The position numbers were made by a program, and so were the translations under genes. DNA of 64,000 nt from Candidatus Woesebacteria bacterium (GTDB lineage Bacteria > Patescibacteriota > Microgenomatia > UBA8517). Each line of letters opens with the position of its first letter. Position 1 is the stretch's first letter. The notes beneath the pieces are model-generated. The model did not search any database and was not told where the DNA came from. It saw only the letters and a program-made list of their open reading frames with translations. The stretch spans positions 2,996 through 66,995 of the forward strand of contig JAGUYM010000011.1 of NCBI GenBank assembly GCA_020061305.1. Reading direction: 5' to 3'. Shown one piece after another: positions 13,663 through 63,718 of this stretch.

Positions 13663-15696
13663 TTACATATTTCCATGACTATTTGGAAATATTACGCCAT
13701 CTTCTAACTTTACAGGATTTAGCATAAAGCCTGATAAGTCTTCAATGACTTCTGCATTATATATATTAATTTCTAATAATTCATCGCTGGATTTATAGGA
13801 TTCAAATGTATCAAAACCAATGACCATATATTTTGCATCTTTTGGAATAGACCCAATAATGTCTTTGTTTTTATTTCTAGAGGAGAGTCTAACAGCAACT
13901 CTTTTAGTTATATCATCTATATCTTCTATTTTTTTATAAAAATTAACATAAACATAACCTCTTCCTTTTTCACTTGTCTTTGGATTTATATAAAAGCCTT
14001 TCCAATCTGAAACTTCGATTGGATCAGATGTCCAGATATTTGGTTTGTCATCAAACAATATTTTTTTAGCAAGAGTCTTCTTGATTATTTTGTATTTTGG
14101 AATTTTAGCAACTATGAAATTTGATTCAGGCGCTTGCCATTCTTTAAGCACTGAATAAACTGCATAGTCTGATAATTCACGAACAGACATCGCAGAATAT
14201 TTATTCTCAAGCATTTCTACTGGCTTATTCCAATACAACAAAGATTGTTTAGTATCTTGCGTCATCCAATCGTAAAAATCTGTTGTAGACCAGTCAAGAC
14301 TTGAAACAACCAAATCGGCACCTTTTTCGCTAAATTCTCGCATACTAAAATCGTCTGACACAAAGTTATATGGAACTACCTTTTCAATAGTATTTGGTAG
14401 AGGAACTGATGCGTGAGCTGCCACAACTGATTTGTCAGGAATATTTTTGTTAACCCAAGCGCCTAATATTTTATAATTCCATGGTTTGATATATTCTCTT
14501 ATCACAACAAATGAATTTAATAGACTTTCGTAACCTATAAATCCAACTACAATTAATATAAATAAATTATTTTTAAAAACTTTAGAAACAAAAACGCTAG
14601 TAAAAATTAGAATAAGGGGAATTATTGTTACAAAGTTTCTGGTATAAAACCCTCCACCTGTATAAACAGTTGTTATAAATAAAAATGGAAGTATTACAGA
14701 TAAAATTAATATGGTGTTTAGTTTTTTGTAATAAAAAGCTACAATAATGCCAAGAATTGAAAGTATCGATGCAATTTTCCCTATTCCAATGTGATAAAGA
14801 TAGGAGTAAGGAAAAAAATCAAATTCCATTCTTCCCGTTCGATACTTACCCGAAACAGACGAAAGCCAGGCTCTTGTCTCATCTAATTTTATTAAATGGT
14901 AAGGATTTAAAACTACAAATAAAACAGCAATGATGACAGGTATCATCATCGCCATCGGTTTAAACAAAAACTTTAATCTTAATTTATTATCTTTTTGTTT
15001 ATACACATTTACTAAATGGGCCAAAAGTAATGGTGTAAATGCAAAAAATTGATATTTTGTTGAAAATGACAAACCCGCAAAAATTGCTGACCAAAAATAA
15101 TTTTTGTTAGTTGGTTTTTCAAAAACATTTAAAGTAAACCATAAAGAAAGAAGCAAATAAAATGAATTATAAATATCAGGAAGACCTAAATGACTATTCA
15201 AAACATGCCTATAATTAATAGCAACAAAGAAAGCACTTAAAAGTCCCGCTTTTGTGCTATACAACCTACGTGTTATCATGAAAGTTAAAATAACTATTAA
15301 AACTCCAATGGTCGCGGTAACATACCTACCCCAAAACAACGCATTTATCCATCTGTCTCCCAATGTAACACGGTAAAAAAAATCATGAAATTTTTCTGCT
15401 TCTTTTGGTATTTCAAGGTGCCCGGCAGGATAATTTAAATAATTTCTAACTAAAAATTTTGACCATTCAACTGGGATAAAAAATGTTTGATATGCAATAT
15501 AATTAGTAAGCGGTGTCATAATCGGATAATCGTAACGAAGAGGATCAAAATTTCCGTTAACTATCATTGAAGAAGCTGCAGAATATGAAATTCCATCATC
15601 AGAATGATAAGGTGGATAACCTGGATTTATACCAACAAAACGAAGTATTACTGCTACGATAAGTATAACAAAAAACAATTTAGTATTAGTCTTCAT
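13663..15696 (-). CDS. GT-C-like polytopic membrane glycosyltransferase (ArnT/PMT-like)
   Basis: 677 aa. The N-terminal roughly 400 aa have many TM helices and an early conserved acidic loop (YHSDDG). The C-terminal roughly 250 aa are soluble. Confidence 0.45.
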   Translation of the reverse strand: MKTNTKLFFVILIVAVILRFVGINPGYPPYHSDDGISYSAASSMIVNGNFDPLRYDYPIMTPLTNYIAYQTFFIPVEWSKFLVRNYLNYPAGHLEIPKEAEKFHDFFYRVTLGDRWINALFWGRYVTATIGVLIVILTFMITRRLYSTKAGLLSAFFVAINYRHVLNSHLGLPDIYNSFYLLLSLWFTLNVFEKPTNKNYFWSAIFAGLSFSTKYQFFAFTPLLLAHLVNVYKQKDNKLRLKFLFKPMAMMIPVIIAVLFVVLNPYHLIKLDETRAWLSSVSGKYRTGRMEFDFFPYSYLYHIGIGKIASILSILGIIVAFYYKKLNTILILSVILPFLFITTVYTGGGFYTRNFVTIIPLILIFTSVFVSKVFKNNLFILIVVGFIGYESLLNSFVVIREYIKPWNYKILGAWVNKNIPDKSVVAAHASVPLPNTIEKVVPYNFVSDDFSMREFSEKGADLVVSSLDWSTTDFYDWMTQDTKQSLLYWNKPVEMLENKYSAMSVRELSDYAVYSVLKEWQAPESNFIVAKIPKYKIIKKTLAKKILFDDKPNIWTSDPIEVSDWKGFYINPKTSEKGRGYVYVNFYKKIEDIDDITKRVAVRLSSRNKNKDIIGSIPKDAKYMVIGFDTFESYKSSDELLEINIYNAEVIEDLSGFMLNPVKLEDGVIFPNSHGNM

Positions 15697-31243: not shown

Positions 31244-32043
31244 TTATTTTGTTTTTTGTCATCATAAAAATGAAGAATTTTAAGACGATAAAAAACGGCC
31301 AAGGTGTCCCATGCCATATTAAAACTTGTTTGCCATTTTATGGCGCTAGTATTTTTATTGAATGTTACCTCTATCGGACCCTCAAAAATTCGGTCAAAAC
31401 CAAAGTACTTAGCAACTGCCAACATTTCTATATCCATAGCGTAAGTTTTGACAAGTAATTTTGGCAATATCTTTTCAACCACTTCTCTTCTAAATATTTT
31501 TATTCCACTTTGCGTATCTGCCAAATCAAGATTAAATAGTATTTTAATACCAAGATGGTACCCAAAACTTAAAACTTTTCTCAAAAATGGATAGTTTACT
31601 CGAGAAACTGGATGTCTTTTACTGCCCACAATTATATCCGCATTGTACCAATCCATGTGGGCCATGAGCATCATTATACCTTTAGGCGAGATATCCATCC
31701 CGGCATCTAAAAACGATATTAAATCACCCCTAGCTTTAGACATACCAAATCTTACAGCATAACCCTTGCCTTGATTTTTTTCGTAATTAAATATTTTTAA
31801 CTTGTTCGAATTAACTTTTTTTGCCTGAAAAAATGTTTTATCAACATTTCCATCAACTACACAAATCACTTCAAAGTCCATGTTTGTTAAACCTTCATTT
31901 AGAGTATTTATAATATTCATCAAATCTCTTTTGATTGTTTTTTCCTGTTTATATGCAGGCACGATAACAGATAGAAATCTATTGGTATTATTTGTTTTTT
32001 TCTTCATTTTACTTGCCTTCGTCATAAAGTAAATTATATCCAC
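31234..32043 (-). CDS. GT2 family glycosyltransferase
   Basis: LSVIVPAYKQEKTI...VICVVDGNVDKT...LISFLDAGMDISP. Confidence 0.65.
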   Translation of the reverse strand: MDIIYFMTKASKMKKKTNNTNRFLSVIVPAYKQEKTIKRDLMNIINTLNEGLTNMDFEVICVVDGNVDKTFFQAKKVNSNKLKIFNYEKNQGKGYAVRFGMSKARGDLISFLDAGMDISPKGIMMLMAHMDWYNADIIVGSKRHPVSRVNYPFLRKVLSFGYHLGIKILFNLDLADTQSGIKIFRREVVEKILPKLLVKTYAMDIEMLAVAKYFGFDRIFEGPIEVTFNKNTSAIKWQTSFNMAWDTLAVFYRLKILHFYDDKKQNNWI

Positions 32044-33259
32044 AGTAAAACCCTAAGCAAATAAGCAATCCAAGAGTTGTAAACAACGATACATGAATTA
32101 TCTCTGTGACGCTATCATGATAAAACCATATAATAATTGCTTGCGTAAGAGCTGAAAACAAGGGTAATATTACAATTTTTACTTTACCGATTGAAAGATA
32201 AAAGTTAACTAACAGGTTTGAAAGTGTATAAAAAAGCATGAAAAAACCCATCCAAACTAAATCTGTTTTGGCTGATAAGTAGTCCTTTCCGTACAAAACT
32301 CCGATGGCAATGTTTGGAAATAGCCAAAACAGTAAAATTGCAGACGATGCAATACCTGCTGTAATCGCAAGTGAAGCAAAAAAAACTTTTAGATATCCTT
32401 GACCTAATGATTTTCTTTTTGAGATCACAGGAAACATAGTAGCTGCGACCGGGGATGCAGCAAAAAAGACAATCTTACCCAATGTTGAAAGAGCTGCATA
32501 AATACCTGCAGAAAAAGGGTCTAGAAAATGTTTCGCTAAAACTACATCAATAGTAAAAATTGAAGTAAAGGCCAAGGCTTGAGCCAAAACTGGGCCTGAG
32601 TATTTTACAAAAGGTGTCAAATCTATTTTTTTAAGCTTAGTAACCCGAATTTGTTTAGTGATAAATTTATAGCTATAAATAAATGAAACAATAGCTCCCA
32701 AAACAACCGCAAACATTGCTCCCATGACAGACCAGCCAAGATATACAAAAGCTACTCCCAAAACAAATTTCAAAAATGAAGATATTAAAGTTGGGATGAC
32801 ATAACCTGAAAACTTTAAAAGTCCTTGAGATGAAGACTGGTTAACTAAAGTCAACAAAGAAAAAAACAATATTGGTGCTACTAATAAAACAGGGGACGTA
32901 TTTTTAAGATGTAAAAATTTTGAAATTACAGGCGATGTTAATAATATGACAGCCACCAATACAACAGATATTCTAAAAACAAATTTGTTAATCGCATCAT
33001 AAACTGAGTAGACCTCACTGTCCTTTATTGAAGAAATAAATTTTACTATTGCAACGCTTGCGGAAGATGGAACAATACTAACCAAATATAGTATTGAGTA
33101 TAAACTGGCGAGAACACCATATTCTACAGGTCCCAACATTCTACCCATTACAAGATGATAACCATAATTAATAACATTTGCGGTCATATTGCCTACAAAG
33201 ACTATCGCGCCACCTGAAAATAGCGGATGGTTAACAAGATTTATGATTTTTTGCTTCAT
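32009..33259 (-). CDS. Polysaccharide biosynthesis protein, Wzx-like flippase (MOP superfamily)
   Basis: 416 aa and about 12 TM helices. It is the second flippase-like gene in the island. Confidence 0.55.
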   Translation of the reverse strand: MKQKIINLVNHPLFSGGAIVFVGNMTANVINYGYHLVMGRMLGPVEYGVLASLYSILYLVSIVPSSASVAIVKFISSIKDSEVYSVYDAINKFVFRISVVLVAVILLTSPVISKFLHLKNTSPVLLVAPILFFSLLTLVNQSSSQGLLKFSGYVIPTLISSFLKFVLGVAFVYLGWSVMGAMFAVVLGAIVSFIYSYKFITKQIRVTKLKKIDLTPFVKYSGPVLAQALAFTSIFTIDVVLAKHFLDPFSAGIYAALSTLGKIVFFAASPVAATMFPVISKRKSLGQGYLKVFFASLAITAGIASSAILLFWLFPNIAIGVLYGKDYLSAKTDLVWMGFFMLFYTLSNLLVNFYLSIGKVKIVILPLFSALTQAIIIWFYHDSVTEIIHVSLFTTLGLLICLGFYCGYNLLYDEGK

Positions 33260-34405
33260 TTATGATATAAAATAGCCTCTTAAAAAAAGAGATTGGGCAA
33301 TAAATAGAATTATAGACATAACGACAAAAATTCCAACTACTAAAGATTTCTTCATCTTGGAAAAGGTTTGTGCCAGAAAAAAGAACATCGGGAAAAGCAA
33401 AATTACATACCTGGGCATTGAGGAAAAACTTCCCGAAATAGTAGGAATTAGATAGCCCAAAACTGAAAAAATCCAGTAATCCCAACGGATTTTCCTTATA
33501 CTAATAATGATTAAGTATAAAAACAGAGTACCAGTAGCCATTTCAAGTAAAACTGTAAAAACAAAGGGGAAATAATCCCAAGTAAGATTCGGTATTATTT
33601 TTACGATGTATCTATAAAAAACTTGCGGCAGCAATACAACATGGTCAGCTCTTTGTTCACCAAACAATGTATAGGCACGGTAGAGTTTGATAGGTCCACC
33701 CCAATTTATAATTAAATAATATATATAACTTAAAAGTCCGATAGGTATTAAAAACAAGGATAGTAAATCCCTTTTTAATGGTTTTTGATTAACAAACATG
33801 CCTATCAAAAATGCGGGAAGTAAGGTAATACCAACCGCACGAGATCCAGAAGCAAACATTGCTAGAATAGAAGCCAAAAGAAACTCATTTTTTCGAAATA
33901 AGTAAAATGACCAAACGGCTAGAGCTAAAAATAAACTTTCTGTATAAACTGCACCAAAATAAAATGAGGTGGGGAAAAATAAAATTAAGATAACTGTTAG
34001 TTTTGAAATTTTTTCAGAATAATCTAACCGTGCTAATTTATATAGTCCAAATAAAGCTAACAGAAGCGCAATATTTGATATAAATATTCCACTCCAAACA
34101 TAGTTTATTAATTCTTGGCCAAATAATGCTGAGACAAAACGAATTAGAAGTGGATATAATGGAAAATAAAATTGCTGTAAATTTTTGTATCCATAAAGTG
34201 CAATTGAGGTAAAATGCTCACCATCAAAATTTGACCAACCCCATACTAATGGGTTATTTAAATAATTGACAAGTTTTCCTCCAAAAAAATTTTCACCCAA
34301 CAACGGAACGAGACGAACAGACAAAACTGCAATAATAATTGTACCAAATCGCCAAAATAAATAACTTTTTAATATGAATTGGATATCTTTTTTCATACTC
34401 TTCAT
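33260..34405 (-). CDS. Polytopic membrane protein, GT-C-like (PIG-V/DUF2029-like mannosyltransferase-like)
   Basis: 381 aa and about 9 TM helices. The N-terminal pattern FGTIIIAVLSVRLV...SNFDGEHFTSIALYGY resembles PIG-V-like membrane glycosyltransferases. Confidence 0.35.
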   Translation of the reverse strand: MKSMKKDIQFILKSYLFWRFGTIIIAVLSVRLVPLLGENFFGGKLVNYLNNPLVWGWSNFDGEHFTSIALYGYKNLQQFYFPLYPLLIRFVSALFGQELINYVWSGIFISNIALLLALFGLYKLARLDYSEKISKLTVILILFFPTSFYFGAVYTESLFLALAVWSFYLFRKNEFLLASILAMFASGSRAVGITLLPAFLIGMFVNQKPLKRDLLSLFLIPIGLLSYIYYLIINWGGPIKLYRAYTLFGEQRADHVVLLPQVFYRYIVKIIPNLTWDYFPFVFTVLLEMATGTLFLYLIIISIRKIRWDYWIFSVLGYLIPTISGSFSSMPRYVILLFPMFFFLAQTFSKMKKSLVVGIFVVMSIILFIAQSLFLRGYFIS

Positions 34406-34415
34406 GTATCACTGT

Positions 34416-35465
34416 TCAGATCATTTTTTTGTATATCTTCAATGTTTCTTTGGCTGCTTTATCCCAACTATATTTTTTGACTTGCTCATATCCTCTTTTA
34501 ATACATTCATTTCTTTGTTTGTTGTCTGACATTAGTATTTTTAACTTTTCTACCAAATCATCAACACTATTAGTATCAAAATAAAGGCAGGCATCACCAC
34601 ACACTTCAACCAATGCCTGAGTTCTCGAACATATTACAGGGCAACCCAATTTCATGGCTTGAATGGGTGGCAAACCAAAACCTTCGTAAAACGAAGGTTG
34701 AATACAGATGTAAGCTAAATTATAAATTTTATTAAGCTCGTCATCAGTTACATATCCCGGTCTAATAACTTTGGAAAAATTTACTCCCTTTAAATGTTTT
34801 AATTCTGGGTGATTTAAGTCCAAATTATTAATATTTTTAGTATCTTCATCAATTGCAACAAGTGGAAAATTTATTTTATTGCAAGCCTCAATAAGTGTTT
34901 TTAAATTTTTATTGTAATTTAAACCATGATCAAATAATATAAATTTATCCGGTAAATTAAATTTCTTTTTGGTTTCCTCAATCCATTTTCCTTTTTCTAA
35001 TTTTTTAATAGCTGATTTTGGAGCAAGATAAACTACATCAACAATTTCAGGTTTAACACCTAAAAATCTACAAATGTCTTTTTTAGAAGTTTCAGAAATT
35101 GTAATAACCCTATCTACATATTTTTTGATCAAAAATTTATTAATATAAAATCTAATTTTTCCTTTAATACCTGACGGATAGTGTTCTGGATATATAAGTG
35201 GTATCAAATCATGAATTGTTAATATCCACTTCTGGCTAGCAGTTTTAAAAAATGGCAAATCAACAAAAAATGGTCTAAATTTAGTGAAATGCACTATATC
35301 TGCGTTTGATCGATCAACAACTATGACTTTTGACTTTTGACTTTTGACTTCAAGAGCTTTTACAAGCTCGCTCGTATTAACACCTATGCCACGCATTGAA
35401 TCTAACTCGCTATGTGCTCCAGATGAAAAATAAACTTTCATTGTTTTATTATACTGCAGAGCCAA
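34416..35465 (-). CDS. GT4 family glycosyltransferase
   Basis: The segment EGFGLPPIQAMKLGCPVICS has the E-x7-E-like signature. The CDS contains a (GACTTTT)n tandem repeat. Confidence 0.7.
   Translation of the reverse strand: MALQYNKTMKVYFSSGAHSELDSMRGIGVNTSELVKALEVKSQKSKVIVVDRSNADIVHFTKFRPFFVDLPFFKTASQKWILTIHDLIPLIYPEHYPSGIKGKIRFYINKFLIKKYVDRVITISETSKKDICRFLGVKPEIVDVVYLAPKSAIKKLEKGKWIEETKKKFNLPDKFILFDHGLNYNKNLKTLIEACNKINFPLVAIDEDTKNINNLDLNHPELKHLKGVNFSKVIRPGYVTDDELNKIYNLAYICIQPSFYEGFGLPPIQAMKLGCPVICSRTQALVEVCGDACLYFDTNSVDDLVEKLKILMSDNKQRNECIKRGYEQVKKYSWDKAAKETLKIYKKMI
35324..35349. repeat. Heptanucleotide tandem repeat (GACTTTT) x3.7 inside the GT4 CDS 34416..35465
   Basis: Read directly: gacttttgacttttgacttttgacttc. 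On the coding strand it encodes KSQKSKV. Confidence 0.9.
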
Positions 35466-36984
35466 CCACTTGACTAATGTTTTTGAGGCCTTTTTCCTCT
35501 AACTTTTGTGACAAATCTCTATTTATTTGAGCAATTAGCTGAGGTCCTTCATAAATCATACCTGTAATAAGCTGAACTAGACTTGCTCCATTTTCAAATT
35601 TTACCCAAGCATCATCAGCATTAAACACCCCACCTGTACCCACTATTACAAACCTATCTTTGAAATTTTTGTAAGCTAATTTTATTCTAATATTCGAATC
35701 TTCAAAAGTAGGTTTGCCTGAATACTTACCCATTTTAAACTTTTTAACTTCATCTTTATCCAAAAGCCTATGTTTTTTATTTGTCTGTAGATTGCCAAAT
35801 ATCACACCTACTATTTTGTGTTTCGCAATAATTTTTAACATACTTAAGGTATGTTTTTCTGTCTGATCAATCGGCATTTTTACAAAAATAGGTTTTTTTA
35901 TTTTTAATTTGTCAATCTCACTTAATAATTTTTCTAAATTTTTTAAATCGTAGAAATCAATATTTAAACTATGAATCAAATTTGGACAACTAATATTTAA
36001 TTCATAATATGCATTATTAAGATTTATTTTTTTGGCTTCTTTAAAACCTTTAACAATATCACTAATTGTTTTATCAACTGTATCCAGTTCGGAAGAATTT
36101 GTTCTACCAACGGAAATTCCAACAGGATATCTAAATTTAGATTTATTGAATTTCTTCAAAGTTTCGTGTATCCCAAAATTTTTAAATCCTTTGTTTACTA
36201 AAAGTGATTTAGAATTTGGAAGACGGCCAAGCATTGGTTTCGGATTACCTTCATAGGATGAATAGCTTAAAGTCCCGATTGTACCAAATCCAAAACCCAA
36301 ATTGGGAAGAATCTTTGTTAATCTCGCCTCATAATCAAAACCGGCAGCTAAACCAATTGGAGACTTAAAATTGACACCCACAATATTTTGGACTAAGTTT
36401 TTATAATATTTACCAAATATTTTTTTGAATAAGATGAGTATTGGTTTTGGTAAATTTTCCCCAAATTTGACCATCCACTCATGAACTGCTTCAGCATCAA
36501 ATAAAAATAAAATCGGTTTTAGTAAATATTTGTAAGCATATCCAAAACAGTCCAATACAAGTGTTTTAAAATCTTTCTCAAAAAAGATTAAGGTGAAACC
36601 AAAATTAAAAAAAGATACAAAAGCAGAAAGCAGGCAATATAAACAAAACAGTTTAATTGCAAACATTTGTATTCCTATTAAATAAAGTGAAAATAAAACC
36701 CCAAAACTGGATGTAATTATGTAAAAATGGCGAAACATTTTATTGCTTCTACCGAAATATAAAAATGATCCCAAAAACATGTAATAAATTACACCTAAAA
36801 GGGCCAATGGAATTCCAAAAATTTCAGAATATTTGGAAGTAGTTACTACCAAGCAGTTTATCCAAGTAGAAACAGGGCAACCAATTGAAGTTAAGACATA
36901 ATGTTCATATGTCAAAAATACAGAATCAGTCAAGCCAACTAAAATTAGAAATGAAAGTATATATATTTGAACTTTTTTCATCAA
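35449..36984 (-). CDS. pyrD: Fusion protein: N-terminal VKOR (vitamin K epoxide reductase) domain plus dihydroorotate dehydrogenase (PyrD-like, class-2 architecture with a catalytic Cys)
   Basis: The N-terminal roughly 160 aa have a loop Cys pair 7 residues apart (GCPVSTWINC), a SKY..IFGIP motif and a CxxC (CLYC) in the last TM, which is the VKOR signature. The C-terminal roughly 340 aa carry GLAAGFDYEARL, GFGFGTIGT, NISCPN, VGTGGV and GASLVQLITGMIYEGPQLI, which align to E. coli PyrD blocks. Confidence 0.7.
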   Translation of the reverse strand: MMKKVQIYILSFLILVGLTDSVFLTYEHYVLTSIGCPVSTWINCLVVTTSKYSEIFGIPLALLGVIYYMFLGSFLYFGRSNKMFRHFYIITSSFGVLFSLYLIGIQMFAIKLFCLYCLLSAFVSFFNFGFTLIFFEKDFKTLVLDCFGYAYKYLLKPILFLFDAEAVHEWMVKFGENLPKPILILFKKIFGKYYKNLVQNIVGVNFKSPIGLAAGFDYEARLTKILPNLGFGFGTIGTLSYSSYEGNPKPMLGRLPNSKSLLVNKGFKNFGIHETLKKFNKSKFRYPVGISVGRTNSSELDTVDKTISDIVKGFKEAKKINLNNAYYELNISCPNLIHSLNIDFYDLKNLEKLLSEIDKLKIKKPIFVKMPIDQTEKHTLSMLKIIAKHKIVGVIFGNLQTNKKHRLLDKDEVKKFKMGKYSGKPTFEDSNIRIKLAYKNFKDRFVIVGTGGVFNADDAWVKFENGASLVQLITGMIYEGPQLIAQINRDLSQKLEEKGLKNISQVVGSAV

Positions 36985-39092: not shown

Positions 39093-39977
39093 TTATTTGG
39101 AATTATTAGTCAAATACTTAAAATAAGCAATTGGGAAGTGCCAAGATGAAAACAAACTCCACAAAAATCCATTTACTCCATCGAGAAAACCAAGGTGACG
39201 CACATACAATGAAAGAAAAGTGACTAGTGGCTTGTGAATTGTGAACAACAAAAACGAAAATAAATTTTTTGGAACATTTTTAACTTTCAGTTCTTCAGCA
39301 TGAAGATCAGTATATCTATTTAATCTCGAAAAATAACGCTTTAATGTTGGGGAATCAAAATGTAACAAATCTCCATTTAACCAGCCAACCCTGCCATCAA
39401 GAGTTATTTGTTCATGAACTGATTTTTGGGGAAACCTAGCGTATCCATTTTTAACAAGTCTAATAACTCCATCAGGATAAACACCTGCATGTACTAAAGG
39501 TTTTCCTAAAAACATGTTTCTTCTGGGAATAAAGTAACCCACAATTTCTCCTGTTGATTTACCAATTGGACCATCACGTTGTTCTATTAGTTTTTGGTGG
39601 CGAGCAAATAGTGGATTGTGATTTGTGACTGGTGATTGGTGAGATACAACAGAAACAATTTCTTTGGCAAGTTCGGGAGTTACGACTTCGTCTGCATCAA
39701 GTTGTAATATCCATTCACCTTTTGCTTTTTCAAGGGCTTTCTGTTTTGTTATATGAAAAATATCATGATGTGGTTCTAAATAAACTTTGGCTCCTAGTTT
39801 TTCTGCAATTTCTCTTGTTTTGTCAGTTGAATATTCATCAACAACAATCATTTCACCCGCAATGTCTTTTACGGATTCCAAACACCTTTCAATATTTTCT
39901 TCTTCATTGCGCGTCGCTAAGACGACAGATAACTTCAGTGATTGGTGGCTTGTGATTGGTGATTTGTAAATACTCAT
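39093..39977 (-). CDS. GT2 family glycosyltransferase (small WaaE/KdtX-like type)
   Basis: LSVVLATRNEEENIERCL...MIVVDEYSTDKT...ILQLDADEVVTPEL...IPRRN. It is a paralog of 60449..61165 and 61129..62046. It contains three TCAC-heptamer arrays, one at codons 4-13. Confidence 0.7.
   Translation of the reverse strand: MSIYKSPITSHQSLKLSVVLATRNEEENIERCLESVKDIAGEMIVVDEYSTDKTREIAEKLGAKVYLEPHHDIFHITKQKALEKAKGEWILQLDADEVVTPELAKEIVSVVSHQSPVTNHNPLFARHQKLIEQRDGPIGKSTGEIVGYFIPRRNMFLGKPLVHAGVYPDGVIRLVKNGYARFPQKSVHEQITLDGRVGWLNGDLLHFDSPTLKRYFSRLNRYTDLHAEELKVKNVPKNLFSFLLFTIHKPLVTFLSLYVRHLGFLDGVNGFLWSLFSSWHFPIAYFKYLTNNSK
39220..39246. repeat. TCACNNN heptamer array (copy D): gtgactagtggcttgtgaattgtgaac
   Basis: It lies inside the GT2 CDS 39093..39977, in the C-terminal part. 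Confidence 0.7.
39611..39643. repeat. TCACNNN heptamer array (copy C): gtggattgtgatttgtgactggtgattggtgag
   Basis: It lies inside the GT2 CDS 39093..39977 and encodes SHQSPVTNHNP in a loop between the DxD-E block and IPRRN. Confidence 0.75.
39938..39966. repeat. TCACNNN heptamer array (copy B, reverse orientation): gtgattggtggcttgtgattggtgatttg
   Basis: It lies within codons 4-13 of the GT2 gene 39093..39977 (peptide SPITSHQS) and immediately 3' of the four-helix-bundle gene. It shares an 18-mer gtggcttgtga(t/a)ttg(g)tga with copy D. Confidence 0.8.
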
Positions 39978-40342
39978 TTTTTACTTAAAATATTAATTAA
40001 TGCATTTATTGACATTGACAAATATTCATATTTTTGTCTTAACATCAAATACTTTTCATTACTAATATAACCTAAGTCTTTCGAAACTAACAGATGATAA
40101 ATTACTTCTCCTGAAGAACCACGAGATGTATATAAAAATTGAACCAATTCTTTGGTTGTATGACGATAAAAACCTTCTAGGATATTAGTAGGTATTGATA
40201 GAGCCGACCTTCGAATTTGTGAAATAAGTCCAAACAATTCTTCTTTTGGAAATTTTTTAGTTATTGTATAAATTTCCATAGCAAGTTTATGTGACCCTTG
40301 CCATATCTTTAAATCTTCAAATTTAGTTATTTGTTTTTTCAT
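39974..40342 (-). CDS. Four-helix-bundle protein of the Avd / 23S rRNA intervening-sequence protein family (TIGR02436-like)
   Basis: 122 aa. FEDLKIWQ...A..IY..TKKFPKEELFGLISQIRRSALSIPTNILEG matches the family consensus well. Confidence 0.75.
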   Translation of the reverse strand: MKKQITKFEDLKIWQGSHKLAMEIYTITKKFPKEELFGLISQIRRSALSIPTNILEGFYRHTTKELVQFLYTSRGSSGEVIYHLLVSKDLGYISNEKYLMLRQKYEYLSMSINALINILSKK

Positions 40343-40354
40343 TTGTTTTTGTTC

Positions 40355-40392
40355 TCACTAATCACAAGTCACTAATCACTATTGTTGTTCAC
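40355..40392. repeat. TCACNNN heptamer array (copy A): TCACTAA TCACAAG TCACTAA TCACTAT ... TTCACTG
   Basis: It lies in the 46-bp gap between the four-helix-bundle gene start and the end of the GT39-like gene. It is the reverse complement of the copy at 39938..39966, identical at 21 of 24 positions (three pyrimidine transitions). Confidence 0.8.
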
Positions 40393-41966
40393 TGCGCATG
40401 TCCTGTAACAATGTAGAATGCATCTGTTTTATTTGGGTATTTGATCTGTTTTACTACATCAAATTGCTGCGCGAATCTAAGCCCCGTATAATAACTTGGT
40501 GTTATGACATATAATATTCCCTCGCTAGGATAGCTGTCTATAATATTCCAGCTTCCAAATTGATATCGACCAAAAGACAAAATGGTGTTAAAACTTTTTG
40601 AATTTGATCTGTCATATTTGACAGTTTTAAGTAACTCAGGAAGTGCTACTTTTTGATAATATAAAAAGTATATATACGGCTGCTGTCTGATATTATCAAC
40701 ATACATTTTTTGAAAATTGTCATTATCTTTTGCATATTCAACAATTTCTTTCATTCCATATTGCCATTCAATAGCCTCTTTAACGGGGTAAACTTTCGAA
40801 TAATAATTTAAATAATATATTACCTCTTTACCTAAATATACTAAAATTAAAATTGCAACAAGTATTTGAACTATTTTATACTTAAATGTTTGGATTAATG
40901 CTGATGCTCCAAAAGCAGATAATAAAATGATGGGGCCTATCATAAATATACCTCTGATTGCACTTGGGTCGATTGATGACACTGAGCTTGGAATTGGTGA
41001 GAGAAACAACCACAATAAAATAACTGATAATGCTTGCCACTTTTTTCTTAATATAAGTGCAAGTAAACCAACCATCAGTAAAATTAAATCTATTTTATAA
41101 AATTGCCCCACAACCTTAACTGATGCTCTTGGTCCTTGATCTCCACTTACAAATAAATATTGATAATTAAAATGTTTTATATAATTAGAGGCAATAAGTT
41201 TTAATTTTCCACCTGCATTTTTAATTTGTTCGTCAGAAAATTTTGTCTGATTTATTCGTGCAAAACCTAAAATTCTAGTATCTTTTATAATTAATATTCC
41301 AAAAAATAATATGATTAGTACCGAAAATGTCAGCGCAACTCTTTTTTGCAATAGAGACTTAATATTTAAGATACAAACCAATATTACAACAATTGGGACA
41401 ACAACTTTGGCAGAGTGATATGAGAAAAAGGATAATCCAAAAGACAAAAATGATATTGGCAACAAATAATTTTTGTTTAGTAAACCAACATAGAATGTAG
41501 ATAACCCCGTAACCAAAAAAAACAATGCAAAGTTATTCTCCCAAAGTCCTCTGGAAAAATGAATATGATATGGAGAAACAGCCAAAAAAAGTGATGCAAG
41601 TAGTCCTGCCAAATCGCTTTTGAATAATTCACGGGCTAAGAAAAAAAATGCAAATACAGATAATGTTCCAATCACTGCACTGACCGATCGAATATTAAAA
41701 TCGGACAGTCCAAATATTTTTACTATTACAGCAGTTAAATAAATGTGAACAGGATGTTTGTCATCACCAAAAGAGGTAAAAGTAATTGGAAATTTATTTC
41801 CATATTCATCTGCTCCCCAATTTGCAATTGTATATGCATTATACCCTGCCGCCACTTCATCCCAATTTAATGAGGCTGGAATTTGGTCAAGTTTGTAAAA
41901 TCTTAAAAAACCTGCCAGTATTACAATCAAGAATAATGTAATATATATTAGTTTGTCTTTCCACAT
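40389..41966 (-). CDS. GT-C polytopic membrane glycosyltransferase, GT39/ArnT-like (tandem paralog 1 of 4)
   Basis: The N-terminal loop SLNWDEVAAGYNAYTIANWGADEYGNKFPITF is shared with the three downstream paralogs. It has about 11 TM helices. Confidence 0.6.
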   Translation of the reverse strand: MWKDKLIYITLFLIVILAGFLRFYKLDQIPASLNWDEVAAGYNAYTIANWGADEYGNKFPITFTSFGDDKHPVHIYLTAVIVKIFGLSDFNIRSVSAVIGTLSVFAFFFLARELFKSDLAGLLASLFLAVSPYHIHFSRGLWENNFALFFLVTGLSTFYVGLLNKNYLLPISFLSFGLSFFSYHSAKVVVPIVVILVCILNIKSLLQKRVALTFSVLIILFFGILIIKDTRILGFARINQTKFSDEQIKNAGGKLKLIASNYIKHFNYQYLFVSGDQGPRASVKVVGQFYKIDLILLMVGLLALILRKKWQALSVILLWLFLSPIPSSVSSIDPSAIRGIFMIGPIILLSAFGASALIQTFKYKIVQILVAILILVYLGKEVIYYLNYYSKVYPVKEAIEWQYGMKEIVEYAKDNDNFQKMYVDNIRQQPYIYFLYYQKVALPELLKTVKYDRSNSKSFNTILSFGRYQFGSWNIIDSYPSEGILYVITPSYYTGLRFAQQFDVVKQIKYPNKTDAFYIVTGHAQ

Positions 41967-43345
41967 ATTTTTTCAAAAGTATAATTACCAAACGATTTGA
42001 CAGTTGAGAAACCCCAGTCAGAAACAGGATTTAGTTGTCTTGTCTTGATAAACTCATTTGGATCTATTTTTTGGTAGAACAAGGCAAATATATAAGGTTG
42101 GGCAAATTTATCACTAACACATCCTTCTTTTTGTTTTTCAAATATTTCTTTGTATTCATATTGCCATGCACTTGAAGACAACTTGTTGTATTCAGTTCCA
42201 AATTTATAAAAATAATTTTCAAATGAAAGTGCATAAATAAGGATTATCCCTGTCAATATCCAAGCCCTACCTTTTTTGAAGAGAGTAGAAAAAAAGTAAA
42301 TTCCCATTGCAGAAACAACTGATAAAATTGGGCTCATTAAAATTGATCGAAGTGCATGTGGATTTTCGCGAGTTAAAGCAGCTGGAATTGGTGCCAACGT
42401 AATAAGAATTAAGATTGGCCAATATTTTGAATTTTTCAAAATATAAATTATTCCAATCACTAAAAACAAAACATCAACGTAATATAATTGCCCAATATTA
42501 GGTATCTGGCTTCTCGGATTTGTATCTCCCGTCTTAATTAAAAAATCGTATGAAAAGTTTTTAAAGTAATTATTTACAATATTTTTTGTATCACCAACTG
42601 TTTGGAATCTACCTAGTCCTGAATCCAGTTTATATAATTTATATATGGGAATAATGCTACCAATCAATAAAATTATTGAAATTGTAACCACAACAAATTG
42701 TTTTTTTGTTAAAAAATAAAATAAAATTGGCCCTAAAATAAACGGTGTTAATATCCTAAAACTATTATAACTGTAAATAGATAGAATAAATAAAATCGTC
42801 GAACCAACAATTAGCCATTTGTTTCTTTGACTATACAAAATTAAATATATTGCCCATATAAAAAATGCTAGACCTGCTACTGCCTCATGCCCTGTTCTTG
42901 AAAAAACATAAAACCATGGGGTTATTGAAAACAAGAATGAAGAAAAAAGAGATAATAATTTCTGGTTAGTCAATTTGAAAACTACGAAATACAAACCAAG
43001 AATTGATAACAATCCGTACAATACTGCGGGCAGACGGACAGCCAGCGTAGATAATCCAAACACAGACTCTGTAACAAGTACAGAGTATATATATACAGGC
43101 AACTTAAATTCGCCAAAAGCTCTAAAATGCAAAGGCAATGTTTCTCCCCATTCATCTTTACCTGTTGTTAGTACAGAGTAGGCATTATAACCAATTGAGG
43201 CTTCATCCCAATAAACTGATGATGGTATTGAATCAATTTTATAAAGTCTGGTTATTAAAAATAACAAACAGATTAATAACAAAAAGAAGTTGATTTTTAC
43301 AAAATTAACACTAATTTTCAACAATTTCAAAAGCTGGATCGCCAT
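41948..43345 (-). CDS. GT-C polytopic membrane glycosyltransferase, GT39/ArnT-like (tandem paralog 2 of 4)
   Basis: Carries the shared loop SVYWDEASIGYNAYSVLTTGKDEWGETLPLHF. Confidence 0.6.
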   Translation of the reverse strand: MAIQLLKLLKISVNFVKINFFLLLICLLFLITRLYKIDSIPSSVYWDEASIGYNAYSVLTTGKDEWGETLPLHFRAFGEFKLPVYIYSVLVTESVFGLSTLAVRLPAVLYGLLSILGLYFVVFKLTNQKLLSLFSSFLFSITPWFYVFSRTGHEAVAGLAFFIWAIYLILYSQRNKWLIVGSTILFILSIYSYNSFRILTPFILGPILFYFLTKKQFVVVTISIILLIGSIIPIYKLYKLDSGLGRFQTVGDTKNIVNNYFKNFSYDFLIKTGDTNPRSQIPNIGQLYYVDVLFLVIGIIYILKNSKYWPILILITLAPIPAALTRENPHALRSILMSPILSVVSAMGIYFFSTLFKKGRAWILTGIILIYALSFENYFYKFGTEYNKLSSSAWQYEYKEIFEKQKEGCVSDKFAQPYIFALFYQKIDPNEFIKTRQLNPVSDWGFSTVKSFGNYTFEKICGKTN

Positions 43346-44972
43346 TAAGGAAATTTATCCTTTCTAATACTTCTTTATATTCTGGGAAGTCTCCCTTTTT
43401 ACCAATAAATAATATTTTTTTGTTTGGATTTGCTTTTACTATATCATCATATCTTGTTCCTTCATCTCTCAAATCTGGGAAATAATACTTATCAAATCTT
43501 AATACTCTAACCCAGTCAAAAGTTTCAAATCTCTCTAAATTATTTAGAGATTGAAATTTTGTAGGATCATATTGCAAATTAAAAAGTGTAAAAATATGTG
43601 GTTCACCATAATGTCTAGTGAAAACAACCAAATCATATTTGTCTTGATTGTTTTTAATGTACTCAACTGCTTGTTTGTTACCATACTGCCAATCTCGAGA
43701 ATATTTAATTGGATAATTAGTAAAATAATTAATTAAATAAATATAAAAATTAATTATGAATAACACTAAAACAAATAGTATTACCTTGATCTTAGATCTT
43801 GGATCTTTGATCATAGACAGAACTTCAAACAAACCAATTGCGGTAAATATTTGATAAACAGGAACTGCAATTAAAGTACGAAGTGCATTTGGGATGCTGT
43901 CGTTTGTCATGGAAACGGGAATAAATGCAATTAATAGCCATGGAATAAGAATTTTTAAAGAACCATGTTTTCTTTTAATTAAAAAATTTAAACCGTACAA
44001 CAAAAATGGCAACTGAATCCAATATAATTCCCCAATCCCTTGTACATGATGTTGTCTGTGCCCTGCACCATTAATAAATAAAAAGTTAGGAGTAAAATGA
44101 GCAACATAATTTTTACTAAAGTAAAAGGTATTATATGTGTATCTATTGTGAATTAATCTTGTCAAGAGTGGTGGCAATTTAGATAAGTTTCTTCTTTCTT
44201 CAATTCTAGGTATTAACCCCTTGTCATCTGTAATACTTACTAATTTATATCTAGCTACAGCACCGCCAGAAAAAACAAAGGGCACAATCGGCAAGACTAA
44301 AACAACAAAGGCTAAAAAGCTAAATGCTAAATATCTAAAATTCTTTAGCAAAAACTTAATATTAAGAAGATAAACAACAAACAAAAAGAGAGGTGTAAAC
44401 ACCCTTGCGGTATTGTATGTGTAAACCGATATTACAAATGGTATCATCGATACAATAAGCAGCTTGGGCTTATTGTTAAACCCTCTAATCAGGAACCAAG
44501 ACCCCATTACAAACCAAAAAAGTGAAAATGAAGATTCAAAAGAAGCTCGGGTAAGTTGAATGTGCCAAGGAGAAACAGCAAGCATAAAGGCAGTGATTAG
44601 TGAATAGTGATTAGTGAATAGTGACTTTGCAAACAATTCTCTGGTTAAAAAATAAAGTAGTAAAACTGTTAGTGTCCCATAAACAACCGGCGTTATCCTA
44701 ACACCAAATTCATTTAATCCAAATATGGCAATTGCAGGAATTGAAGCATAGATTTGAGTAGGTAATTTATACTCACCAAATGATTTAAAATGAACCGGCA
44801 TAAACTCGCCCCATTCGTCTTTTCCAGTTTTCATTATTGAATATGCATTGTAACCAATAGAAGTCTCATCCCAATTTAAAGATGGTGGAATTGTCGTTAC
44901 TTTAAAAATTCTTAAAGCAAATGCAAGGACTAATATTAATATCAACCAATAATTATAATTATTTTTTAACAT
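43311..44972 (-). CDS. GT-C polytopic membrane glycosyltransferase, GT39/ArnT-like (tandem paralog 3 of 4)
   Basis: Carries the shared loop SLNWDETSIGYNAYSIMKTGKDEWGEFMPVHF. It contains a TCAC-heptamer array. Confidence 0.6.
   Translation of the reverse strand: MLKNNYNYWLILILVLAFALRIFKVTTIPPSLNWDETSIGYNAYSIMKTGKDEWGEFMPVHFKSFGEYKLPTQIYASIPAIAIFGLNEFGVRITPVVYGTLTVLLLYFLTRELFAKSLFTNHYSLITAFMLAVSPWHIQLTRASFESSFSLFWFVMGSWFLIRGFNNKPKLLIVSMIPFVISVYTYNTARVFTPLFLFVVYLLNIKFLLKNFRYLAFSFLAFVVLVLPIVPFVFSGGAVARYKLVSITDDKGLIPRIEERRNLSKLPPLLTRLIHNRYTYNTFYFSKNYVAHFTPNFLFINGAGHRQHHVQGIGELYWIQLPFLLYGLNFLIKRKHGSLKILIPWLLIAFIPVSMTNDSIPNALRTLIAVPVYQIFTAIGLFEVLSMIKDPRSKIKVILFVLVLFIINFYIYLINYFTNYPIKYSRDWQYGNKQAVEYIKNNQDKYDLVVFTRHYGEPHIFTLFNLQYDPTKFQSLNNLERFETFDWVRVLRFDKYYFPDLRDEGTRYDDIVKANPNKKILFIGKKGDFPEYKEVLERINFLNGDPAFEIVEN
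44593..44625. repeat. TCACNNN heptamer array (copy E): perfect (gtgattagtgaata) x2 plus gtgac
   Basis: It lies inside the GT39-like CDS 43311..44972 and encodes SLFTNHYSLIT. Confidence 0.8.
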
Positions 44973-46422
44973 CTGTTATTGTAATATTGCCATATACTTT
45001 AGGAAAAGTACCATATTGTGATTGTACTAATTGAGGATCGATTTTTGCATATACTGGATAGGCATATTCAATATTGTCAATATTAGTTGAGAGAACAACC
45101 TTTTTATCTTTTGGTTTACTGATTGCTTCAATTGATTTTTTCTTCGCCTCCTCCGACCAAAAAGATCCAAACTTATTAGGAGCAAAATAATAAATCGTTA
45201 TCAAAACATGGATCAACTGAACAATTATTAAACTAACAAATATTAACTTTGCTTTTTTTGGAATACTAGATAGAGCATATGCAGATATTAAAATAAAAGG
45301 CGGTAACATTAAATTATTTCTAAGCGCATGGGTTTGACCAAGAAACATAGTTGCAAGTGGGGTAATTAGAATCCAACAAATGATTAATGTTAAATACTTT
45401 TTGTTATTATTTGCCAAAAAGTATAAACCAACAAATAATAGCCCCATTTCAGCCAAATATAACATGCCCCATTCAGCAGGATTTGCTCTAGGATTTCTGT
45501 CGCCTCGCAAAAATAAAAACTGGGGGGACAAATTTTCAATATAATTTTCGAAAAGTATTCTTGAATATAATAGCGGCCGATTATAAATGTATGGCTTGAT
45601 TGCTTCGGGTAGTGTCGAAAGTGTGCGTTTCTCATTAACTTTTTGTATCACTTCTTCCCTCAGCTGTGCATCTGATAAAACATTTAATCTTAAAAATCTT
45701 TCCTCCGATGTCCCTTTAAAACTTTCGTTCAATGAAAATAAAGCAAACAGAGACAATATTAAAAGTGACAATTTAAATTGATTGTCTTTAAACATTTCTT
45801 TAATTCCAGAAGTTATCGCCAAAATTGGAAATAGTAGCGGTAGTGTTAACTTAAATGTTGGATATGTAAAAATTGTCAAACCAAAAAAAACAGCCATTGG
45901 TATATATTTCTTGTACAAAAACGAAACTACGCCCAAGAGTGATAAAAATAATGCAAGATGAGCTTCAAATCCTGCCCGAGATAAATATATATCCCACAGT
46001 GAAATTGAAGTTAAAAAACTTGCCCATAAACCGACATTATTATCAAAGAGCTTTTTTCCGATAAAATACATAATCAATACTATTCCCATTCCAGATAGGA
46101 ATGATAATCCCCTAACTCCCCATTCAGTTGGTCCAAATAGCGCAACAAACGGTATGCTACCGTAAACATACCCCGCGGGCCTGCCTGCACCCATTTTAAA
46201 AGTTATAGGCAGTCTTTCACCTGTTTGATCCATTCCGGTTTTCAATAATGAATATGAATCGTACACAATAGTTAATTCATCCCCATACATTGGAAGTGAA
46301 GTTATTTTATATACTCTTAAGAAGAATCCTAATATTAATATTCCAATTAGTATATAATTTGAGTATGGAAGTTTTGCTGATGGGATCAATTTTTGGATTT
46401 TCTCTCGCAACATTAATTTCAT
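44959..46422 (-). CDS. GT-C polytopic membrane glycosyltransferase, GT39/ArnT-like (tandem paralog 4 of 4, more divergent)
   Basis: Carries a divergent version of the loop: YGDELTIVYDSYSLLKTGMDQTGERLPITF. Confidence 0.55.
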   Translation of the reverse strand: MKLMLREKIQKLIPSAKLPYSNYILIGILILGFFLRVYKITSLPMYGDELTIVYDSYSLLKTGMDQTGERLPITFKMGAGRPAGYVYGSIPFVALFGPTEWGVRGLSFLSGMGIVLIMYFIGKKLFDNNVGLWASFLTSISLWDIYLSRAGFEAHLALFLSLLGVVSFLYKKYIPMAVFFGLTIFTYPTFKLTLPLLFPILAITSGIKEMFKDNQFKLSLLILSLFALFSLNESFKGTSEERFLRLNVLSDAQLREEVIQKVNEKRTLSTLPEAIKPYIYNRPLLYSRILFENYIENLSPQFLFLRGDRNPRANPAEWGMLYLAEMGLLFVGLYFLANNNKKYLTLIICWILITPLATMFLGQTHALRNNLMLPPFILISAYALSSIPKKAKLIFVSLIIVQLIHVLITIYYFAPNKFGSFWSEEAKKKSIEAISKPKDKKVVLSTNIDNIEYAYPVYAKIDPQLVQSQYGTFPKVYGNITITDVKK

Positions 46423-62046: not shown

Positions 62047-63718
62047 ATATTATACTTTTTTTATTCTCAAAAATCTTCTTTAGATCTAAATCACTGGGGC
62101 CCAATTTTAATAACTCACCCACAAGTGGTGAGTTTTCCTTAACTAGGTATAAATATTTAATTTTATTCTTTTTTAAAAAATCCTTACCTGCTACAGGATC
62201 TAAATTAGAGATAAACCAAGCAACTTGATTTCGCCTTTTTCTCCAATCGTAACCCATGATATTTAAATTAACCTCGTCTTCAATAAATACCTTTTTACCA
62301 GAAATTGCCGATACATATGCTGTCGAATCATAGTAATAAAGTGATCTGGGCGGGTTAGCATTTTCAACTTTCGCCTTATCTGAATCAAATAAATAGGTCA
62401 AAACAATTCCACCTGGTTGCTCTTCCAAAAAAGTTAAAGCTACTATTTCTTCTGCAGAAACAATAGCCTGCGGCATTTTTGGTAAATAATGTTGAAGTGT
62501 CGACCAAACCGAGAAAAGCGAAAAAAATATGAATATATAATATTTAATATTTAACTTAATTCTGCTAAATGAAATTCCTGCAAAAATTGCAAAGAAAAAT
62601 AAATAATAATAAAAAAATTGAATTGTATTCCATGGCGTACCTTTTTGCACAAAAAGTAGAGGAATTGCCATTGCAGACATCATAATGGATATAATAAATA
62701 CAAATACGAGTTCTATCTTAACTTTAATCAAATATAAGAAACCAACAATTCTTAGACCCATGTTGCCTACAACAAATATTATAAAGGCTATTAAATAAGC
62801 CAAAATTCCTTTAAACCAAATATGTCCCATTTTATAAGTAGTCATAGCTGAATAAAACCTTTCCCAACCCAATCGATCTGAATAGCTCATCATTGTTTCC
62901 AAAAACCAAAACGGTTGCCAAACAAAAGTGGACAGACCATCATTTTTGGTTATTGCAAATAAAACTAAGTTAAGAATAAGTGAACCTAAAAATACACGCA
63001 GGTAGTATGTAGTATGTAGTATGTAGTATGCGTATATACAAGTAATAGCTAAACTACCTAAAACTAAGATTGCGGCGTAAGCCTTAATTTGTATTAATAA
63101 ACCAAAAAATAAAATACTAAAAAATAGATTCTTTTTTTGTAAAGCAATTAATCCAGATAAAATAAAAATTAAAGATAAGGCAAATGGAGGATTTATAAGT
63201 GTAGAAACTGCTTGCTGTGACCAAAACATTGATTCACCTGTAATTACTCCATCTCTTAACAAAGTAACTAAAAAACCAAAACTTCCACTAAAATAAACAA
63301 ACATGGTTGCCCACAAAGCCTCAGTTTTGGAACCACGCCAACTCCAAACGAACCAATAAACCAATAAACCAATTCCTAATGCAAACAACGGTGGGAGAAT
63401 CTGGAAATATAAATTACTAACAGAAATACCAGTTAATTTATGTAGTAACGCTAAAAATAAATCGAAGCCAATGTGATAATTTTTGATTGTCTCACCAGCA
63501 AAAACTGGATTTTCAAAATTTCCTGAAGCCAAACTTCTAGCAAGTGCTAAGTGCCATATACCATCATGGCCGTTTGCTCCCCAAAATCCAAAGCCAAAAT
63601 AATATAACAGCCCACTCCTCACCATTGTCAAAGACCAAATTATTGTACCCAATGATATTACAAGGATGTGTTTCCAGTATCTAACAATTTTGTTCATTGG
63701 CACTATTTTTCTCCCCAA
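62015..63718 (-). CDS. Polytopic membrane protein, paralog of 46290..48152 (GHDG-WH...NP-FAGE family)
   Basis: Carries the shared motif GANGHDGIWHLALARSL...ENPVFAGETIKNYH. It contains a (GTAGTAT)4 tandem repeat in the CDS. Confidence 0.45.
   Translation of the reverse strand: MGRKIVPMNKIVRYWKHILVISLGTIIWSLTMVRSGLLYYFGFGFWGANGHDGIWHLALARSLASGNFENPVFAGETIKNYHIGFDLFLALLHKLTGISVSNLYFQILPPLFALGIGLLVYWFVWSWRGSKTEALWATMFVYFSGSFGFLVTLLRDGVITGESMFWSQQAVSTLINPPFALSLIFILSGLIALQKKNLFFSILFFGLLIQIKAYAAILVLGSLAITCIYAYYILHTTYYLRVFLGSLILNLVLFAITKNDGLSTFVWQPFWFLETMMSYSDRLGWERFYSAMTTYKMGHIWFKGILAYLIAFIIFVVGNMGLRIVGFLYLIKVKIELVFVFIISIMMSAMAIPLLFVQKGTPWNTIQFFYYYLFFFAIFAGISFSRIKLNIKYYIFIFFSLFSVWSTLQHYLPKMPQAIVSAEEIVALTFLEEQPGGIVLTYLFDSDKAKVENANPPRSLYYYDSTAYVSAISGKKVFIEDEVNLNIMGYDWRKRRNQVAWFISNLDPVAGKDFLKKNKIKYLYLVKENSPLVGELLKLGPSDLDLKKIFENKKSIIYEYGQDFGSD
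63002..63029. repeat. Heptanucleotide tandem repeat (GTAGTAT) x4 inside the membrane-protein CDS 62015..63718
   Basis: Read directly: gtagtatgtagtatgtagtatgtagtat. It encodes ...ILHTTYY... on the minus strand. Confidence 0.9.

Follow-up and report, generated by a model that had tools for sequence, protein, structure and literature searches.

Intervening sequences (IVSs) that carry an open reading frame (ORF) of the S23p family between inverted ends have been known from bacterial 23S rRNA genes since the 1990s, and stand-alone members of the same, very large protein family are widely annotated. The IVS of Coxiella burnetii, first reported as 444 nt long (428 nt by rapid amplification of cDNA ends), has a 28-bp terminal stem and is cleaved by RNase III in vitro, and for the family as a whole both the function of the protein and the origin of the IVS element are unexplained (PMC4990558). 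Avd, a distant relative found in diversity-generating retroelements (DGRs), is a four-helix-bundle (4HB) protein that forms a pentameric barrel and binds structured RNA; each of its five protomers in the DGR complex touches the same 11-bp RNA stem–loop by way of flipped-out bases (bioRxiv 10.1101/2023.10.23.563531). Tandem heptanucleotide repeats form another body of work: the short tandemly repeated repetitive (STRR) sequences of cyanobacteria, the GGGAATC arrays of Xanthomonas and the GGGGAYT arrays of Nostoc have a period of 7 nt and roughly four units, in Xanthomonas often occur as convergent inverted pairs, mainly between co-directional genes, and have been read as G-quadruplex-forming regulatory repeats; one GGGAATC ×4 array overlaps the start codon of XCC0516, the crystallised member of the 4HB family, although no tie between arrays and family was drawn (Rehm et al. 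2015, PMC4692102 and supplement). Here we analyse a cassette that ties together stand-alone Avd-like genes and bacterial heptanucleotide repeats, both unexplained. It occupies positions 39937–40380 (444 bp) of a 64-kb stretch of Candidatus Woesebacteria DNA (contig JAGUYM010000011.1; G+C content 30.7%; hereafter the window), where it fills the spacer between two glycosyltransferase genes, PMT_2/PMT and GT2, and is co-oriented with both. We consider it probable that this is one copy of a widespread class of S23p/TIGR02436 4HB cassettes with terminal inverted heptamer arrays, of the same element type as the rRNA IVS but residing in a protein-coding operon. Our search of the open-access literature returned no paper linking the TIGR02436/PF05635 family to flanking heptamer arrays. 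Within that literature three points appear undescribed: the lineage-specific heptamer-array ends, in rRNA and operons alike; the identity in type of operon-borne copies and IVSs; and a cassette that is polymorphic for presence or absence at an orthologous site and translationally fused to the gene that follows.

All features of the cassette lie on the minus strand. With the two genes that it separates, they are as follows (contigs and loci used for comparison are designated by L numbers throughout):

40389–41966, minus strand: PMT_2/PMT glycosyltransferase gene (GT39-like, GT-C), the upstream neighbour (Pfam)
40355–40380, minus strand: 5′ arm, upstream in the sense of the gene, AGTGATT AGTGACT TGTGATT AGTGA
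39974–40342, minus strand: 4HB gene, 122 amino acids, TIGR02436/PF05635 (S23p, ‘23S rRNA-intervening sequence protein’) (hidden Markov model matches)
39974–39977, minus strand: ATGA overlap between the 4HB stop codon (TGA) and the GT2 start codon (ATG) (sequence)
39937–39962, minus strand: 3′ arm, downstream, TCACCAA TCACAAG CCACCAA TCACT
39093–39977, minus strand: GT2 glycosyltransferase gene (PF00535)

The two arms are each 26 nt long, lie 392 nt apart and are complementary at 23 of 26 positions (88%); an earlier note on this DNA, made from the sequence alone, had counted the same repeat slightly shorter, as 21 of 24. Both are arrays of 7-nt units, RGTGAYT heptamers. The TCAC-array pattern TCACNNNTCACNNNTCAC occurs seven times in the window against 0.00 expected, and the flank-to-flank inverted-repeat score reaches 17 at the 4HB gene whereas the maximum for 130 control genes is 12, so that a chance origin of the inverted arms is excluded. 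The 5′ arm starts 8 nt past the PMT_2 stop codon and ends 12 nt ahead of the 4HB ATG; its six stop triplets close all three frames after PMT_2. The 3′ arm is free of stops in every frame and, as the 4HB stop overlaps the GT2 start, falls inside GT2, where it is read as residues 6–14 (SPITSHQSL). The start codon and first ~15 residues of GT2 thus come from the cassette, whereas relatives with an empty site begin at MKLSVV. The earlier note had identified the two neighbouring genes correctly and had placed both arrays between them; this holds for the upstream arm only, the downstream copy being coding sequence of GT2. Recognising the cassette therefore has a value for annotation, as it accounts for odd repeat-encoded N-terminal extensions such as the SPITSHQS of GT2.

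At 444 nt, with 26-nt arms 392 nt apart, the window cassette has the same anatomy as an rRNA IVS. The IVSs of Coxiella burnetii, Leptospira, Brucella, Haemophilus and Azospirillum share with it the S23p/PF05635 protein family, a similar size (444 nt in Coxiella as first reported and 469 nt in Azospirillum), terminal inverted repeats of 26–36 nt that enclose the ORF in a loop of ~390–400 nt, a poor or absent ribosome-binding site, and a patchy distribution with evidence of lateral transfer. A corresponding locus of Azospirillum lipoferum 4B (L129) is a 23S rRNA gene by its Rfam match (LSU_rRNA_bacteria, 2147 bits): in its IVS, a 4HB ORF is enclosed by arms of 36 nt that are 86% complementary and stand 397 nt from each other, and these arms too are built of heptamers (CAGAGGA CGGATGA CAGAGGA CGGAGGA). 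This IVS (L129:1154–1622) lies on plasmid AZO_p2 (NC_016586.1, ~14336–14804); its 4HB ORF is unannotated, and the PLSDB gene table, which omits RNA genes, has no feature there. The window copy differs from the rRNA IVSs in sitting in the spacer of a protein-coding operon rather than in 23S helix 45 or helix 25, and in having its 3′ arm translated as part of the next gene. Its processing by RNase III, as predicted from the stem, would separate GT2 from its start codon. Finally, the Coxiella protein was reported as probably not made, whereas the window protein is clearly under selection. The rRNA IVS is probably just one habitat of a general cassette whose inverted ends are built from lineage-specific heptamer arrays.

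The predicted fold of the transcript is consistent with such a relationship. For the sense RNA of 39917–40400, the minimum free energy and centroid structures both close the cassette with a terminal arm–arm stem (z = −3.69; none of 100 shuffles as stable). We propose that the cassette is co-transcribed with its operon and that its arms would pair in the transcript as a stem of ~26 bp closing the ORF in a loop, as in the structures that RNase III cuts in rRNA IVSs; by homology, the paired arms may themselves be an RNase III substrate. A scan around the cassette found no terminator or promoter signals of its own above background: 12 promoter-like sites were counted against 7.5 ± 3.0 expected, and none is placed to serve the cassette. 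This fits a passenger that relies on host transcription.

The protein belongs firmly to the family that the earlier note had named. It scores 125.5 bits against PF05635 (cut-off 33.8; model positions 1–105 of 106) and 118.3 bits against TIGR02436 (cut-off 24), and its nearest named relative, from Candidatus Woesebacteria, is 72% identical; named close relatives of the family here come mostly from the Candidate Phyla Radiation (CPR), and plasmid-borne copies mostly from cyanobacteria. The nearest solved structure is 2GSC (Xanthomonas campestris XCC0516), matched over its chain A at E = 3.5e-18 (residues 8–121). As 2GSC is a homopentamer (PMC4990558), this full-length match suggests a four-helix-bundle fold and a homopentameric assembly for the window protein as well. 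The gene is under purifying selection, with dN/dS of 0.09–0.26 wherever dS could be estimated. Between the window and its nearest compared relative (L004), dS is ~0.95, yet the 5′ arm and leader differ at only 1 of 31 positions; to judge from this dS, the insertion is old.

That the gene might be an orphaned Avd left by a degraded DGR, the reverse transcriptase (RT) and the pair of template and variable repeats having been lost, was one suggestion of the earlier note. Most DGRs do have Avd-like proteins, and the window protein shows distant homology to the Avd equivalog model (NF033474, E = 2.3e-4). The score, however, is 21.5 bits, far under the cut-off of 80, the closest structure is the stand-alone XCC0516 and not Avd, and the protein is under purifying selection. 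As the earlier note had also stated, RT is absent: PF00078 had no match at E ≤ 1e-5 in ORFs of at least 280 amino acids across the 64 kb (ORFs at 32009–34405 were covered solely through the precomputed Pfam table of an identical contig, L001), and no RT stands beside the 4HB gene in the called-gene Pfam tables of related contigs. Unlike Avd, the window protein comes with neither RT nor template or variable repeat; its gene stands alone with its own inverted arrays, an architecture that recurs without RT across many phyla. We therefore regard a DGR remnant as very improbable.

The cassette gene and its arms show presence/absence polymorphism at the orthologous GT2 position. Contigs with an identical 4HB protein, and relatives at 89, 83, 82, 75 and 72% identity, carry the gene directly upstream of GT2 in one orientation. 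Wherever a relative has the gene at this position, inverted arrays accompany it, GTGA-type upstream and TCAC-type downstream, with varying unit number and filler bases. The refuting check that the earlier note had set for itself thus turned out to favour the inverted-repeat structure. A metagenome scan with the GT2-orthologue alignment yielded 80 loci of 54–79% identity, 64 of which had at least 450 nt of upstream sequence and were used. Five of the 64 are filled, with a 4HB gene at the GT2 start (truncated in one); the other 59 are empty sites of the kind that the earlier note had proposed to look for. In these, a median of 10 nt, and in 58 of 59 no more than 93 nt, separates the upstream stop codon from the conserved LSVV codon of GT2, and arrays are missing except at a few loci (L056, L075, L076 and L116, which have solo arrays or footprints). 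This structure of the empty sites indicates that the N-terminal extension of GT2 is gained or lost as one unit with the 4HB gene and the two arms. Selection on the protein thus goes together with turnover of the cassette at an orthologous site.

The histories of cassette and site are not the same. Filled loci occupy at least seven separate places in the GT2 tree, each beside empty sisters. The gene upstream of the cassette varies, being the PMT_2 gene seen here, a paralogue that shares 28% identity with it, or an unrelated gene, and the cassette adjoins the GT2 start in every filled lineage whatever its upstream neighbour. In pairwise comparisons, 4HB identity shows no correlation with GT2 identity (Spearman −0.07 and −0.22): in 4HB, for instance, the L005/L006 type is 75–77% identical to the window and L010 types but in GT2 just 52–53%, and its upstream gene differs. 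Such incongruence suggests that the cassette moved laterally, either by itself or along with the 5′ end of GT2. Losses have left traces in two empty loci (L056 and L076), where the gene is gone and one or two heptamers remain in the GT2 N terminus; those of L056 match the right arm of a related filled locus, L063. Other copies are damaged, with a frameshifted 4HB gene in L028 and a truncated one in L052. A separate insertion of another 4HB subfamily was considered for L052, whose fragment is 43–46% identical to the others; as the fragment shares their N-terminal motif KITKFEDLxIW, in-place decay is equally likely. The 4HB genes at the GT2 site are mutual closest relatives (at least 58% identical, compared with at most 55% for 4HB genes at other sites), so the association with GT2 arose once. 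Like insertion sequences and MITEs (miniature inverted-repeat transposable elements), the cassette is present or absent at a given site. It encodes no transposase, its sole ORF being the 4HB gene, and its boundaries, resolved to a few nucleotides, display no evident target-site duplication against the empty sites; in several filled loci the PMT_2 stop (CAGTGA) already resembles the first repeat unit. We suggest that insertion and lateral transfer have spread the element and that deletions remove it. The earlier note's idea of a small mobile module is upheld in so far as gene and arrays are present or absent together, with incongruent histories and footprints, although the insertion of the present copy is old.

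The same comparisons bear on whether the segment is an invertible switch, in which recombination between the 26-bp inverted arms would flip the 4HB gene, a second possibility that the earlier note had raised for a segment flanked by inverted repeats. Across ~12 diverged lineages and more than 25 contigs, every copy is oriented the same way, the only way in which ATGA coupling is possible, and four assemblies with an identical gene agree in orientation and in 70-nt flanks. No recombinase gene was seen nearby among the window ORFs or in the Pfam tables of related contigs. Inversion is therefore extremely improbable.

Heptamer-armed cassettes extend well beyond this site. A scan of species-representative genomes for family members gave 21 loci (in Woesebacteria, Levybacteria, Paceibacter, Bacteroidales, Rickettsiales and Burkholderiales), most with a short-period array just upstream and an array of the reverse-complement type just downstream. 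Besides the window copy, we examined 29 4HB cassettes of CPR, Bacteroidota, Proteobacteria and Cyanobacteria that have matched inverted arms, and inverted heptamer arrays lie on both sides of plasmid-borne 4HB genes of cultured organisms (five loci, from Nostoc punctiforme, Riemerella, Geminocystis and Picosynechococcus). The repeat units are lineage-specific (TAATGAC, GCAAGTT, CGTGGTT and AAGTGAC, among others), and each cassette has its own. This is clearest where two tandem 4HB cassettes lie between tsaE and an epimerase gene (L024:2860–4160): their units differ (TAATGRG/CYCATTA and GCCAGNN/NNCTGGC), and within each cassette the two arms correspond; a run of N, marking an assembly gap, interrupts the long second array. 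Across cassettes in general, the mean energy of the arm–arm duplex is −37.4 kcal/mol within a cassette compared with −23.7 kcal/mol between different cassettes. Other cassettes occupy short spacers between co-directional genes, as in the window: dnaK|dnaJ, thiolase|acetoacetyl-CoA reductase, tsaE|epimerase and dprA|Mur ligase; another sits upstream of a UDP-GlcNAc 2-epimerase gene. Mimicry of Shine–Dalgarno and anti-Shine–Dalgarno sequences by GGTGAT/ATCACC was considered as an explanation for the arms and dropped, because other lineages use unrelated units (TAATGAC, GCAAGTT, AAGGGAA, GGAGATA).

Generic heptamer repeats, of the cyanobacterial STRR or Xanthomonas GGGAATC type, could in principle gather in spacers around 4HB genes by coincidence. 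Xanthomonas has 186 such arrays, beyond what one gene family could explain (PMC4692102), 16 of 23 stringent arrays in our set are solo period-7 arrays away from 4HB genes, and the window itself, which has only one 4HB gene, contains four solo arrays: 35321–35352 (CTTTTGA ×4) and 62998–63032 (GTAGTAT ×4), both in long minus-strand ORFs far from any 4HB gene, and two of the TCAC type:

39618–39642, minus strand: solo TCAC heptamer array in GT2, encoding SHQSPVTNH (pattern search)
44593–44624, minus strand: solo TCAC heptamer array in a PMT_2 paralogue (pattern search)

The first of these is within a length-variable loop of GT2, with a similar stretch in L010. The second coincides with a four-residue insertion, TNHY, that is missing from the L010 orthologue and from the paralogues, which indicates that heptamer arrays also seed or expand within coding loops. 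Stringent period-7 arrays, however, concentrate around 4HB genes (7 of 23 lie within 120 nt of a gene end, a zone that makes up 1.4% of the 575 kb, for an enrichment of ~21-fold), the arms match within a cassette and not across cassettes, both arrays are missing from empty GT2 sites, and a true rRNA IVS has the same arms. Coincidental association is thus largely refuted already, and we hold it to be quite improbable. The window arrays also differ from those of Xanthomonas and Nostoc in that RGTGAYT units are not G-quadruplex-prone.

Another rival is that the element has been domesticated as a regulatory module, which would control GT2 through ATGA translational coupling or through phase variation by slippage of its 7-nt repeats, 7 not being a multiple of 3. 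The ATGA overlap is kept in all compared relatives but one (L121, TAA-gt-ATG) and suggests translational coupling of 4HB and GT2; with it, the in-frame fusion is kept in nearly all filled relatives, and retention under purifying selection has been long. Repeats just past the start codons of glycosyltransferase genes are a classical phase-variation design, and L005 has four perfect TCACCAG units right past the ATG. Slippage, however, fits poorly with an array length that is constant among ten L010-type and five L005-type contigs from different samples, or with the imperfect repeat units of the window. Nor is the architecture specific to glycosyltransferases, as it also occurs beside unrelated genes and within rRNA, and most GT2 orthologues do without the cassette. 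We consider a regulatory role of this kind unlikely, and return to an IVS-type element inserted in an operon as the favoured account of the locus.

The arms of the cassettes have a polarity. In 24 of 25 cassettes the 5′ arm is rich in G, and the 3′ arm is rich in C in as many; stop triplets number 89 in the 5′ arms compared with 28 in the 3′ arms (51 and 24 by a hand count with one Woesebacteria copy kept). All three frames are closed by the 5′ arm in 12 of the 25, and all three are open through the 3′ arm in 13. Because the arms are reverse complements, the polarity of frame and base composition holds for both strands.

What the protein does may be connected with these ends. The putatively pentameric, Avd-like protein may act on the ends of its own element, where the nucleic acid is structured or repeated. 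A more specific proposal, to which we give a small chance, is that the S23p/TIGR02436 pentamer recognises the heptamer arrays of its own cassette, about one protomer per unit or through periodic irregularities of the arm stem, much as Avd contacts its stem–loop; gene and arrays would then form a selfish, self-recognising unit able to inhabit any highly transcribed RNA, whether rRNA or operon spacer. An entry arm that closes the frames and an exit arm open in all of them would make its insertion tolerable. If this were so, dispersed heptamer arrays and array hairpins of many bacteria (STRR-like or GGGAATC-like) would be gene-less derivatives, and the proposal would supply both a function for a family that has lacked one since 1993 and an origin for bacterial heptamer repeats. 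There is a parallel in repetitive extragenic palindromes (REPs) and their RAYT proteins (REPtrons), and in pairs of MITEs and transposons, where a small gene is likewise bracketed by inverted short repeats that are also dispersed in the genome; it suggests, by analogy, a gene servicing its own repeats. RAYTs, however, are HUH transposases whose chemistry is known, whereas no catalytic activity is known for the 4HB protein, and the repeats here are tandem heptamers, with a unit peculiar to each cassette, rather than palindromic REPs. Binding of the protein to the arms and processing by RNase III are predictions that can be tested.

Several observations weigh against the IVS-type reading or narrow it. 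With regard to movement, none was observed; an old copy and a single 4HB clade at the site mean that one ancient insertion followed by many losses and transfer by homologous recombination explains much of the pattern, and the GT2 tree from which separate placements were read is a neighbour-joining tree with no support values. No catalytic activity is known in the TIGR02436/PF05635 family. With regard to the arms acting as RNA, a test of sense-strand pairing gave 28 G·U and 30 A·C mismatches in 30 cassettes and hence no strand preference, the window copy has three A·C mismatches in the sense strand, and the antisense duplex is the more stable in 15 of 21 cassettes. A cut by RNase III in the stem, parting the GT2 start codon from the body of the gene, also seems costly. 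Lastly, in one Nostoc PCC 7120 copy (L126) the arrays look direct and not inverted, and orthologous cassettes in the arm statistics are non-independent data points.

Individual cassettes present features of their own. In Picosynechococcus sp. PCC 7003, a plasmid-borne 4HB cassette with GGAGATA/TATCTCC arms (L130:1186–1542) lies in a type III-B CRISPR operon, with cas10/cmr2 on one side and cmr3 on the other, a location that may be the reason why the family appears in surveys of CRISPR neighbourhoods. On Nostoc punctiforme pNPUN01 (L125:1000–1800) the cassette is just downstream of a tyrosine integrase gene, and in many Nostoc plasmids the match takes in the 3′ end of that integrase gene but leaves out the cassette, which makes another case of presence and absence; the 4HB ORF there seems to have had its 3′ end changed by a separate repeated element of ~180 nt (query positions 498–675). 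A 4HB gene elsewhere (L045:2597–2701) has an in-frame insertion of ~105 nt with two G+C-rich hairpins (CTCCGCAG...CTGCGGAG and CCCCGCTC...GAGCGGGG), which resembles a miniature repeat element within the cassette. In a Bacteroidales locus (L031:2900–3430), a full array hairpin, GTGAT array then ATCAC array, stands on each side of the 4HB gene, and a second, decayed 4HB copy lies ~1.2 kb upstream (1210–1876).

Genes for GT2, GT4, PMT_2 and polysaccharide synthesis surround the cassette of the window and make up a glycosylation island. The whole window (1–64000) has this character of a glycosylation and envelope island, with at least seven GT-C genes of PMT_2 type, four of them in tandem at 40389–46422, about 12 GT2 genes, several GT4 genes and numerous large ORFs without a Pfam match. 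Scans of the window found no Rfam match and no tRNA gene, and PADLOC defence families gave no match at E ≤ 0.01. One ORF of 511 amino acids (35449–36984, minus strand) joins a VKOR domain (PF07884) to a dihydroorotate dehydrogenase domain (PF01180), an unusual fusion, according to the precomputed Pfam table of the identical contig L001.

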